From NCBI RefSeq assembly GCF_965641715.1, contig NZ_OZ282461.1: DNA of 1,541 nucleotides. One strand, 5' to 3'. The notes under the pieces were generated by a model that was not told the DNA's origin, searched no databases, and worked only from the letters and a program-made list of their open reading frames with translations. This DNA is from Escherichia coli (GTDB lineage: Bacteria; Pseudomonadota; Gammaproteobacteria; Enterobacterales; Enterobacteriaceae). A program made the translations under genes and the position numbers. Positions 1 to 1,527 of this stretch are shown here, one piece after another. Positions within the stretch are counted from its first letter, which is position 1. Each line of letters starts with the position of its first letter.

Positions 1-37
1 GTGCTCAATGTGGCTTCCGGTTCTCTTCCGCTTCCTC

Positions 38-80
38 GTCGATTCGCTCGCTACGCTCGGTCATCGACTTGCGGCGAGCG
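38..80. other. Hairpin-rich segment resembling what I recall as the primosome-assembly-site (single-strand initiation) region downstream of the pMB1/ColE1 origin
   Basis: Seen in sequence: cttccgcttcctcg (26-39) and ...cgctcgctacgctcggtcatcgacttgcggcgagcgg... parallel pBR322 cttccgcttcctcgctcactgactcgctgcgctcggtcgttcggctgcggcgagcgg (recalled). Dyads gtcgat (38-43) with atcgac (63-68), and cgctcgc (45-51) with gcgagcg (74-80), are preserved despite substitutions. Function is inference. Confidence 0.4.
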
Positions 81-386
81 GTGTCACCTCTCGCATGTTG
101 TCGGTGATCCCGTTGTTGTTCTTTCGGGGATGAGTCGTCAGATAGCCCTTCAAACACGCTCAGAAGCTCTCAGACGCACGAAACGGGTTTTAGATGCCCG
201 TCAGGGCATGGAAGGCGCGAAAAACGCTTACAGAGGCTCTCAGGAGGTCAGGCGCGCCGATACCCCTAACCAGGGGCTTTCAGGTCGCCAGGAACCGCGC
301 CAGCCCCCTGCAAAGCCCATTTGCACGGTACAGGCAGCCACTCGGTTGGTAGGTGGTCGTAGACCGTCGGTGTTACAGCGATGGGG

Positions 387-440
387 GTCTGGGGTTCTCC
401 CCAGACGGTTTCCGGTTGCGCTCAAGGCGCTGCCGGAACC
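387..440. other. Two tandem stem-loops in the GC-rich non-coding region (perfect 8-bp stem at 387-406; imperfect longer stem at 407-440)
   Basis: Seen in sequence: gtctgggg-ttct-ccccagac, then ggtt-t-ccgg-tt-gcgc-tcaag-gcgc-tg-ccgg-aacc. Whether they function as RNA or as single-stranded DNA structure is unknown. Confidence 0.35.
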
Positions 441-576
441 GTGGCGGCTCGGTCGTTCTGGAGATCGGGGAGCAAAAACACGCAAGGGATTTTGAGGCGG
501 CAAAAGAGCAATGCAGGATAGACAATCATGGTCAGAACGTTAACACGTAGCCCCTGATTGTCCGCCTGCCGCTGGC

Positions 577-1056
577 TCAATTTGAAAACATGGCCATGAT
601 TCGGCGCTGAATATCACCGTCTTTGTTGACCAGTGTTTTAGTGACAAACGCCGCGTAGTTTTTAGATGTGTTGTATCCCTTCCAGACTTCATGTGGATCC
701 AGTGCATACGCACAAACCTTACCGGCAACAGGAATTCTGACTAACGCGTTTTTTGATTCTAAGTAGTTGAGCCAGCGCTTAATTGTGCTTCGGCTAACAC
801 CCAATTTATCTGCTAAAAACTGCTGATCGGCAACGACAGCACCGCATGAGGGATCTATGTGCTCAGCTAAAAACGAGTAAAGCGGTATTGCTACAACTCC
901 CTGCTTGTCCTTCGACAGTTCTCGGATCCTTTCCCAGCCCTTCTGATAAACCTGGGTGAATGGGCCGTTATTTTTCGGATCTGGTTCCGATTCTTTGTTT
1001 AATTTTTCCAGTTCTTTTAGACGCTTTTTTCGCTGCTCTTCAGTCCCGATATACAT
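577..1056 (-). CDS. Putative plasmid replication initiator or DNA-binding regulator with a helix-turn-helix motif (RepA-like, as in small cryptic enterobacterial plasmids); 159 aa
   Basis: Seen in sequence: ORF from the track, ATG at 1056-1054 and TGA stop at 579-577 on the minus strand. A GGAG Shine-Dalgarno (plus-strand ctcc, 1064-1067) lies 7 nt upstream of the ATG. The segment ...VADQQFLADKLGVSRSTIKRWLNYLESKNALVRI... (approx nt 736-834) has the pattern of a helix-turn-helix. The N-terminus is lysine/glutamate-rich. It is the only long ORF in the AT-richer block and is preceded by a repeat-rich region. Inference: Rep-like function from motif and context; a vague recollection of pKL1-type 1.5-kb plasmids with a small RepA is not verified. 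Confidence 0.75.
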   Translation of the reverse strand: MYIGTEEQRKKRLKELEKLNKESEPDPKNNGPFTQVYQKGWERIRELSKDKQGVVAIPLYSFLAEHIDPSCGAVVADQQFLADKLGVSRSTIKRWLNYLESKNALVRIPVAGKVCAYALDPHEVWKGYNTSKNYAAFVTKTLVNKDGDIQRRIMAMFSN

Positions 1057-1063
1057 GGTAAAT

Positions 1064-1067
1064 CTCC
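1064..1067 (-). promoter_or_regulatory. Shine-Dalgarno (GGAG) for the 577-1056 CDS
   Basis: Seen in sequence: minus-strand reading is ...gaccgtGGAGatttaccATG, with 7 nt between GGAG and the start codon. Confidence 0.6.
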
Positions 1068-1086
1068 ACGGTCTAATAATGGCTCA

Positions 1087-1115
1087 AATATAAGCTATCA
1101 TAGCTCAAACGTAAA
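1087..1115 (-). promoter_or_regulatory. Putative sigma70-type promoter for the HTH gene (-35 TTTACG, 17-bp spacer, -10 TATATT, read on the minus strand)
   Basis: Seen in sequence: minus-strand reading is catggTTTACGtttgagctatgatagctTATATTtgagcc. The -35 hexamer corresponds to plus 1110-1115 and the -10 to plus 1087-1092, about 30 nt upstream of the ATG. Matching to consensus was done by eye; no transcription start data. Confidence 0.35.
1093..1105. promoter_or_regulatory. 13-bp palindrome agctat-c-atagct inside the putative promoter spacer (candidate autorepressor operator)
   Basis: Seen in sequence: perfect dyad agctat/atagct around a central c at 1099. Its position between the putative -35 and -10 is typical of repressor operators (inference). 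Confidence 0.4.
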
Positions 1116-1131
1116 CCATGATAGGTCGACC

Positions 1132-1153
1132 TAGCTCACACATGCGTGAGCTA
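1132..1153. repeat. 22-bp near-perfect palindrome tagctcacacatgcgtgagcta (10 of 11 dyad pairs)
   Basis: Seen in sequence: the reverse complement differs from the forward sequence only at the a/c pair (1140/1145). Overlaps the first direct-repeat copy. Confidence 0.65.
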
Positions 1154-1182
1154 ACCTTAGACCACGCATGCGTGAGCTAACC
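1137..1182. repeat. Two 20-bp direct repeats (cacacatgcgtgagctaacc at 1137-1156 and cacgcatgcgtgagctaacc at 1163-1182), period 26 bp; iteron- or operator-like
   Basis: Seen in sequence: 19 of 20 identity. The second copy contains a perfect 12-bp palindrome, cacgcatgcgtg (1163-1174). Related half-motifs (g)agcta/tagct recur at 1082-1088, 1093-1105 and 1194-1199. Functional role is inference. Confidence 0.65.
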
Positions 1183-1275
1183 CATAATGCAAGTAGCTAA
1201 AAAATCAATAACTTACAAAATCGCCCTTAAATATCTTTTCTGCTGAAAGTGTTGCGCGAAGCGGAACACTTTTTT

Positions 1276-1299
1276 GGGGTGTCGGGGCGAAGCCCTGAC
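1276..1299. repeat. Left arm of a 24-bp inverted repeat (ggggtgtcggggcgaagccctgac); the arm is also an internal hairpin
   Basis: Seen in sequence: the reverse complement of 1504-1527 is ggggtgtcggggtgaagccctgac, matching 23 of 24 positions. Within the arm, gtcggggc and gccctgac are themselves near-complementary. Confidence 0.7.
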
Positions 1300-1340
1300 A
1301 CAGTCACGTAGCGATAGCGGAGTGTATACTGGCTTATTCC
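1276..1340. other. ColE1/pMB1 bom-like origin of transfer (oriT) with putative nick motif CTGG/CTTA at 1329-1336
   Basis: Seen in sequence: ggggtgtcggggcgaagccctgacacagtcacgtagcgatagcggagtgtatactggctta closely resembles the pBR322/pMB1 bom segment gggtgtcggggcgcagccatgacccagtcacgtagcgatagcggagtgtatactggcttaac, recalled from memory. Established knowledge: the ColE1 relaxase MbeA nicks within CTGG/CTTA. The nicked strand was not determined here. Confidence 0.6.
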
Positions 1341-1457
1341 TCTGCAAGCCTTACCAGCCGTGATTTTTGCCAGATTTCGCGCTCTCCACGTTCAACAGCT
1401 CCATCATGTTTTTGCCGTCCGTTCACCGCTAAAACGCCTCAGAAATCGGGACAGGAT

Positions 1458-1500
1458 GTGGGAATGTCGGACCGCGCACGCGCACTCAGACATTCCCCAC
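1458..1500. other. Stem-loop: gtgggaatgtc (1458-1468) pairs with gacattccccac (1489-1500); the loop carries an alternating pyrimidine-purine tract cgcgcacgcgca (1473-1484)
   Basis: Seen in sequence: 7-bp perfect core gaatgtc/gacattc plus flanking G:C pairs with one bulge. No downstream T-run, so it is not a canonical intrinsic terminator. Confidence 0.4.
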
Positions 1501-1503
1501 CTA

Positions 1504-1527
1504 GTCAGGGCTTCACCCCGACACCCC
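1504..1527. repeat. Right arm of the 24-bp inverted repeat (gtcagggcttcaccccgacacccc)
   Basis: Seen in sequence: partner of 1276-1299 with one mismatch; the arms are separated by 204 bp. Confidence 0.7.

Follow-up and report, generated by a model that had tools for sequence, protein, structure and literature searches.

The window analyzed here, the whole 1,541-bp stretch from the Escherichia coli contig NZ_OZ282461.1, carries a single gene, repA, on its minus strand, together with repeats and a candidate promoter upstream of that gene and a non-coding remainder that includes sequences resembling the transfer and priming signals of other plasmids (Table 1). The window is a complete circular plasmid of the known pKL1 family, a replicon that has already been described and is common; we take it to be a whole plasmid because, in circular relatives, the sequence runs on from one end of the window to the other with nothing lost. 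We read this circle as a Rep-driven replicon module joined to a non-coding cassette of cis-acting signals, with RepA as the only encoded initiator, and put the probability of this reading at roughly 85%.

Table 1. Positions of repA and of the sequence features discussed in the text, numbered within the 1,541-bp window.
Feature	Position	Strand	Remarks
repA	577..1056	-	ATG start, 159 aa; homologue of a winged-helix initiator and autorepressor; sole gene
Shine-Dalgarno sequence GGAG	1063..1066	-	6 nt before ATG; from the sequence itself
Candidate repA promoter	1087..1115	-	-35 TTTACG (1115-1110), 17-nt spacer, -10 TATATT (1092-1087); consensus match
Two 21-bp direct repeats	1076..1117		TGAGCTA/TGAGCCA half-sites; overlap -10 and -35
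Two tandem 22-bp palindromes	1132..1153, 1158..1179		TAGCTCA-N8-TGAGCTA, 26 bp apart
A+T-rich stretch	1183..1245		Candidate unwinding region; IHF consensus inside; GC 0.37 in 1151-1250
ColE1-type bom/oriT	1271..1336	+	94% (63/67) to ColE1 1462-1528, including GTATACTGGCTTA
IncI1 (R64)-type oriT	1443..1527	-	Hairpin 1460-1497, ACATCCTG at 1459..1452, 24-nt segment 1504-1527
ColE1 ssiA-like (PriA/n'-type) primosome assembly site	23..82	-	Hairpin 45-80; AAGCGG motif on minus strand
G+C-rich non-coding block	96..500		Conserved; near-invariant hairpins 386-407 and 407-441
Putative third oriT (MOBP/IncX4-like)	503..563	-	Inverted repeat 521-531/552-562, then TATCCTG/C (slash, nick-like position)

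Megablast placed the window closest to many complete circular E. coli plasmids of 1.55 to 1.57 kb that are 94 to 96% identical to it, and its variant has already been deposited many times, for example as plasmid NC_017629 of E. coli ABU 83972. All close relatives are typed Col(MG828) and "mobilizable" by MOB-suite, and pKL1 itself, from E. coli KL4 (NC_002145, 1,549 bp; Burian et al., 1997 to 2003; Col(MG828) also being its PlasmidFinder type), falls in the same Col(MG828) group as the window, with DNA that is 91% identical over positions 1 to 960 and 84% identical over positions 1197 to 1541. Relatives of the repA module were present in 331 of 5,426 complete E. coli genomes, and the exact variant of the window was present in 32. 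Hundreds of complete circular records of 1.3 to 1.9 kb hold a RepA-family open reading frame (ORF) as their sole gene, and the window has the same layout of a circle of about 1.5 kb with repA alone that the openly available secondary literature gives for pKL1, which it describes as a selfish plasmid. Near-identical copies are also deposited under implausible hosts (Corynebacterium renale, NC_004833; Acinetobacter; Pseudomonas) or filed as "Escherichia phage" records of 1.4 to 1.9 kb, and both kinds of record probably represent contamination or mislabeling. A kinship with pIGWZ12 was considered and rejected, as the initiator of that plasmid is an unrelated Rep_3 protein.

We regard repA as the only gene because the competing ORF, positions 1 to 495 on the plus strand, has a broken frame in 30 of the 43 distinct variants of the family and because its variable sites have no codon third-position bias (34/47/39). 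This ORF, annotated by PGAP as "rep protein" in NZ_CP182202, was rejected as a gene on those two grounds. In several records, PGAP has annotated ORFs that span the region of the primosome assembly site (pas) and the G+C-rich block, under the names "rep protein" or "replication protein" (window positions 1 to 495 and 8 to 133, both on the plus strand; L126, 1 to 585; L006, 1266 to 1391), and these annotations appear to be spurious, the frame being broken in most variants. A small "replication initiation protein" coding sequence has been annotated in a similar way within a ColE1 RNA II region (L004, 784 to 942). No relaxase gene was found among the window ORFs, nor were mbeA-D, other mob genes, or any further conserved ORF found in the window.

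A word-indexed search returned 697 homologues of RepA at an E value of ≤1e-3, an exhaustive search of 1.84 billion proteins gave 345 clusters at 50% identity, and the identical protein occurs on 594 contigs. RepA is 78% identical over its full length to pKL1 RepA (WP_000469298; E = 4e-94), with identity rising from 37% in residues 1 to 35 through 64% in residues 36 to 57 to 94% in residues 58 to 159. The Pfam scan of RepA gave HTH_36 (4e-6), generic winged-helix and helix-turn-helix (HTH) families, and a weak match to RepL (E = 0.014). Among 67 aligned diverse relatives, the RepL profile (PF05732) matched 31 at an E value of ≤1e-3 and 54 at an E value of ≤0.1, and relatives of about 45% identity carry RepL as their PGAP annotation; Rep_3 (PF01051) and rolling-circle or HUH-type Rep families were absent from the Pfam matches of RepA and of all 67 relatives. 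The AlphaFold2 model of RepA is a winged helix with a predicted local distance difference test (pLDDT) score of 87, comprising an N-terminal helix (residues 6 to 23), two HTH helices (78 to 85 and 89 to 101), a wing (105 to 119), and short C-terminal helices. Searches of the PDB by sequence and by fold returned generic MarR/ArsR/GntR winged helices alone and no solved relative that is an initiator.

The DNA upstream of repA is dense in repeats. The half-site TGAGCTA, with at most one mismatch, occurs 10 times in the window where 3.7 occurrences are expected, a count that none of 200 shuffles reached, and 7 of the 10 lie between positions 1080 and 1200. We presume that the tandem palindromes are RepA-binding sites at the origin or operator and that the direct repeats, which enclose the sole sigma-70-like site found in the window, are the site of autorepression. 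Paired palindromes just upstream of rep form an architecture that is constant in four Rep variants, with a sequence particular to each variant: TGTCGCA-N7-TGCGACA in pKL1, TGTTGCA-N7-TGCAACA in the Yersinia plasmid L011, and TTTCGTAC-N2-TACGAAA in L005 and L008, two E. coli plasmids whose Rep is annotated as RepL. A pair equivalent to the direct repeats also sits just upstream of rep in L011. Beyond the palindromes, an exact consensus for IHF, AATCAATAACTTA, occurs at positions 1203 to 1215 (one match where 0.04 is expected), and the A+T-rich stretch around it is a plausible unwinding region. For pKL1, PMC3832669 reports that binding sites for Rep and an IHF box lie upstream of rep, and the secondary literature places oriV there; inverted-repeat Rep sites and an IHF box occupy the corresponding place in the window at the level of sequence. 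The repeats of the window are paired palindromes and one pair of direct repeats, which is not an iteron array in the sense of at least three direct iterons with a Rep_3 initiator. A terminator-like inverted repeat (AAAGTGTTGCGC / GCGGAACACTTT, followed by TTTTTT on the plus strand) lies at positions 1246 to 1276, with the A+T-rich region on one side and bom on the other. The closest relative, L001, has kept it, whereas pKL1 has kept only part of it, and a strict scan skipped it on account of one mismatch.

These results agree with much of what a first-pass annotation of the same DNA, made from the letters alone, had proposed, namely, a small Rep-like HTH protein as the only gene, standing beside iteron-like repeats. 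The repeats are real, in the form of the palindromes, the direct repeats, and the half-site enrichment, and the rival ORF proved to be non-coding. That annotation had named a family profile search and a structure prediction as checks on the protein and, as the outcome that would speak against it, membership of the protein in a family of non-replicative regulators or phage repressors. That outcome did not arise. The profile search connected the protein to initiators through RepL in 31 of the 67 family members, the predicted fold is a winged helix, and on the regulator side generic HTH domains alone scored; together with the identity to pKL1 RepA, these findings support a Rep-like protein.

The window differs from pKL1 most sharply in one segment. 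Positions 961 to 1196 cover ~32 codons at the start of repA along with the promoter and the palindromes; BLASTN could not align this segment with pKL1 (L003), although the flanks are 84 to 91% identical. The half-sites of the two operators also differ, pKL1 having TGTCGCA and TGCGACA separated by 7 nt where the window has TAGCTCA and TGAGCTA separated by 8 nt, which suggests a different RepA/operator specificity. We infer that the N-terminal part of RepA and the operators form a specificity module that has been swapped relative to pKL1; if this is true, a change in incompatibility would be expected.

The remainder of the circle is a non-coding cassette of about 850 bp that runs from position 1270 to position 1541 and on from position 1 to position 578. 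Two of its segments resemble ColE1. In the bom element, the nick is presumably at CTGG/CTTA, between positions 1332 and 1333 of the plus strand, by analogy with ColE1. The ssiA-like segment at positions 23 to 82 is 84% identical (51/61) to ColE1 positions 1308 to 1367, which lie ~110 to 170 nt beyond the ColE1 origin (a position inferred from RNAI); this segment is common to more than 5,000 plasmids, and its fold as single-stranded DNA has a z score of about -2. The two elements keep the order and orientation that they have in ColE1, with ~190 extra nt between them. A PriA-dependent role of ssiA and the conversion of single strands to duplex at a phiX174-type primosome site have been described (PMC3167613).

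The control elements of ColE1 are missing from the window. RNA I (Rfam RF00106) had no match in the window even at an E value of ≤1, and the positive controls, ColE1 and the ColE1-type relative L127, scored 74 to 81 bits in the same search. The sequence of the ColE1 origin (RNA/DNA switch) is absent as well, similarity to ColE1 in a global alignment ending right past the pas-like segment, and so is rom. A permissive Rfam scan of the window returned a sub-threshold proV match in repA alone (E = 0.17; 18.8 bits versus a gathering threshold of 88.5), which we take as chance. Positions 96 to 576 were considered as a decayed ColE1 origin and rejected, nothing significant being found by BLAST or alignment, and a resemblance of positions 196 to 232 to a ColE1 ori motif was short, pointed the wrong way, and lacked significance. 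In plasmid L127 (NZ_CP080084, 4,894 bp), a genuine RNA I of the ColE1 type and a Rop gene occur together with the Col(MG828) cassette and a small HTH Rep; L127 is either a real ColE1/Rep cointegrate or a two-replicon plasmid.

The first-pass annotation had noticed the ColE1-like bom and hairpin segments and had failed to find the RNA I/RNA II arrangement, and it was right on both counts. From these it had proposed a hybrid replicon. A Rep core with ColE1-type transfer and priming signals stands, but the term hybrid replicon overstates the case because what resembles ColE1 consists of signals for transfer and for priming of the lagging strand, not of replication control. Nor is the combination new, the family being a known one. 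The same reading overlooked the IncI1-type origin of transfer (oriT) and the sharing of the cassette across unrelated Rep types.

The element at positions 1443 to 1527 is, to judge from its homology to the sequence upstream of nikA-nikB, an IncI1 (R64)-type oriT, and it is not on the strand that carries the ColE1-type nick but on the other one. It is 95% identical over 84 nt to a sequence in the IncI1/B/O plasmid NC_022371 that ends 16 nt upstream of mobA/nikA, is ~77% identical to a typical IncI1 plasmid in which NikA and NikB are annotated, and is matched in ~2,400 large, mostly conjugative plasmids. We take its nick to lie between positions 1452 and 1451 of the minus strand, by analogy with R64 and RP4. 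In a comparison of 18 distinct variants, taken from plasmids and from metagenomes, 98.8% of the cells of the hairpin at positions 1460 to 1497 are paired, and six of its nine pairs have compensatory double changes; slid controls gave 25 to 53% pairing, and an unbiased search of the whole cassette found this to be its sole helix with clear covariation. The stem has at least four alleles, and the allele is independent of Rep type, which fits helper relaxosome specificity rather than RepA. The window also contains a 24-nt inverted repeat (positions 1276 to 1299 and 1504 to 1527), which is explained by a segment that bom and the IncI1-type oriT have in common. In such an oriT, the inverted repeat is the expected binding site of NikA (PMC9282650), and experiments have shown that the relaxase-less plasmid pEC156, with a ~93-bp R64-like oriT, is mobilized by both R64 and F (PMC4743918).

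A third element, 14 nt downstream of the repA stop codon, may be an IncX-type oriT, with a nick-like position between positions 514 and 513 of the minus strand. Several alleles of its hairpin alter the inner stem and keep the pairing and an invariant TATCCTGCATT, and conjugative plasmids of the IncX4 group have an 84%-identical copy downstream of their pir-like rep gene and of a small ORF. We liken the element to MOBP-type nick regions. In the open-access literature, we found no discussion of the oriTs of Col(MG828) or pKL1 plasmids.

The cassette is 88 to 96% identical over its full length across plasmids with differing Rep types, and positions 1 to 578 alone reach 98%. The Rep proteins encoded beside it are 78 to 99% identical to the window RepA where they are of the pKL1 type, 45% identical in the RepL-annotated plasmids L005, L006, and L008, and 18% identical in L007. 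As far as these comparisons go, the cassette behaves as an exchangeable module. The Col(MG828) label goes with the cassette and not with rep: plasmids with an 18 to 45% identical Rep are still typed Col(MG828), and Yersinia and Serratia plasmids (L011 and L012) with a 64 to 72% identical RepA and no cassette are untyped. This widely used label thus puts plasmids whose initiators are unrelated into one class and passes over relatives that lack the cassette. What the Yersinia and Serratia plasmids have in common with the window is repA and the upstream repeats alone, and because they keep these without the cassette, we argue that the rep module is an autonomous replicon. Parts of the G+C-rich block (positions ~26 to 383) also adjoin the rep genes of IncX4 plasmids (L009/L132) and those of an IncX-like 5.2-kb plasmid and an IncFII-like plasmid (L128 and L129). 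For positions 96 to 345 as a G4-type primase site, no homology to G4/phiX microvirus origins was found in the phage collection.

In the mechanism that we favor, RepA dimers would bind the tandem palindromes and the promoter repeats upstream of their own gene and thereby serve both origin recognition and autorepression, the latter as copy number control. IHF bound at its site would bend the DNA, the adjoining A+T-rich DNA would open, and host replication proteins would start a theta-type fork from the opened DNA; the replicon module would span positions ~577 to 1245, and a ColE1-style RNA II primer or RNA I control would have no part in the replication of the window. The cassette would act in cis with proteins of other elements or of the host, through the ColE1-type bom/nic, the IncI1/R64-type oriT on the opposite strand, and probably an IncX-type oriT, with the ssiA-like PriA site serving the priming of the lagging strand or of a complementary strand. 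For any mobilization that takes place, the relaxase and mating apparatus would be drawn from co-resident ColE1-like, IncI, and possibly IncX plasmids.

Several observations weigh against this reading of a Rep-driven replicon with a signal cassette. There are no DnaA boxes beyond chance in the window, which leaves the route of helicase loading unexplained, and ~400 nt of the cassette (positions 96 to 500) are strongly conserved without an explanation. The match of the window RepA to the RepL profile is weak in itself, no NCBIfam model reaches its cutoff for RepA, and none names it. RepA function, the theta mode, and the host requirements are taken from secondary citations and general background. 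Finally, the portion of the ColE1 oriT kept in the window amounts to 67 nt, which counts against the predicted sufficiency for nicking by MbeA.

The alternative that survives best, although we consider it improbable, is replication of the ColE1 kind, in which the repA transcript or its read-through into the G+C-rich block would prime DNA polymerase I, the fork would expose the ssiA-like site, and the HTH protein would be a mere repressor. The order and orientation of repA transcription, the G+C-rich block, the pas (with AAGCGG on the displaced strand), and bom are those of RNA II, ori, ssiA, and bom in ColE1, and the absence of a DnaA box, the MarR/ArsR repressor-like fold of RepA, and the persistence of a nearly unchanged cassette beside three unrelated small HTH proteins would all suit such a scheme. 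However, small plasmids wholly without the cassette also carry homologues of RepA with their upstream palindromes, and the window has neither the ColE1 origin sequence nor RNA I. The read-through RNA would, moreover, be C rich over positions 351 to 550 (GC skew of the plus strand, +0.18 to +0.31), which is unfavorable for a persistent RNA-DNA hybrid. The RepA family is also linked to RepL initiators, and pKL1 RepA is called a replication protein in those parts of the secondary literature that treat it.

Rolling-circle replication or strand displacement, in which a nicking activity would be brought in by the HTH protein, with the ssiA-like site acting as a single-strand origin, is in our judgment a little more improbable again. 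The very small size of the plasmid would suit it, and the RepL-type plasmids of Firmicutes are grouped, with some uncertainty, with rolling-circle plasmids. Against this, the 159-aa RepA has neither a nuclease nor an HUH-type Rep family in its Pfam matches, and the sole nick-like sequences of the window are conjugative oriTs homologous to those of ColE1 and IncI1. The ssiA-like site itself could be counted in favor of this alternative, a phiX174-type primosome site being what converts single strands to duplex (PMC3167613). That the ORF is a regulator carried as cargo, or encodes an HTH protein of a phage or of a toxin-antitoxin system, and that the window is a fragment or assembly artifact deserves almost no credence: most databases call the protein "helix-turn-helix domain-containing protein," some call it YdaS/Cro-like, and Pfam gives weak matches to HTH_3, YdaS, and the CI repressor, but hundreds of complete 1.3- to 1.9-kb circles have this ORF as their sole gene, the window circularizes cleanly, and the protein is closely similar to the named RepA of pKL1.

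We tentatively propose, at a little under even odds, that the ~850-bp block is not part of the plasmid backbone but a portable "hitch-hiking cassette" that would carry up to three helper-specific oriTs (of ColE1, IncI1, and IncX type) and a PriA site and would recombine among unrelated one-gene mini-replicons. In this proposal, the alleles of the oriT hairpin would track the specificity of helper relaxosomes, and selection would act mainly on the cassette, with rep being interchangeable. These one-gene plasmids appear to have oriTs for at least two helper families, which would explain their spread without a mob gene, and the borrowed oriTs of the window fit the present interest in relaxase-less plasmids that carry an oriT. 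The exchangeable cassette, the IncI1-type oriT, the putative IncX-type oriT, and the RepA/operator swap are testable refinements of what is known of the pKL1 family and not a new type of system.

Among known systems, pKL1 stands closest to the window. The two plasmids are alike in size, in their one-gene layout, and in having paired palindromes and a similar A/T-rich stretch upstream of repA, and their non-coding cassettes are 93% identical over the full length; they differ in that the hairpin of the IncI1-type oriT is another allele in pKL1. Like RepA, the initiators of the RepL family are small winged-helix proteins, and the RepL mechanism is so poorly defined that membership in this family adds little mechanistic information. 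ColE1/pMB1 plasmids share with the window bom (94% over 67 nt) and the ssiA-like site (84% over 61 nt), whereas RNA I, RNA II, the RNase H/Pol I switch origin, rom, and the mob genes are features of ColE1/pMB1 that the window lacks. The window, in turn, has the IncI1-type oriT within the ~190 nt between bom and pas, and its replication appears, by homology, to depend on Rep.

With the oriT of R64, which lies in the nikA-nikB leader, the window shares the ATCCTG core, an adjacent inverted repeat that lies 8 nt away from the nick as expected, and the 24-nt segment that follows, but the window has no nikA or nikB downstream, and the partner of its element is a ColE1 bom, inverted with respect to it and containing the same 24-nt segment. 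Plasmids pEC156 and pKPN2 and the nikA-bearing pCERC7/NTP16 group resemble the window in being small enterobacterial plasmids that have no relaxase and carry borrowed oriTs of conjugative plasmids (PMC4743918 and PMC9282650). These are ColE1-type RNA I/RNA II replicons of 4 to 7 kb with cargo genes, whereas the window is a circle of 1.5 kb that is probably Rep dependent, and its set of oriTs consists of a ColE1-type and an IncI1-type element, with possibly an IncX-type element in addition, and includes neither an F-type oriT nor nikA.

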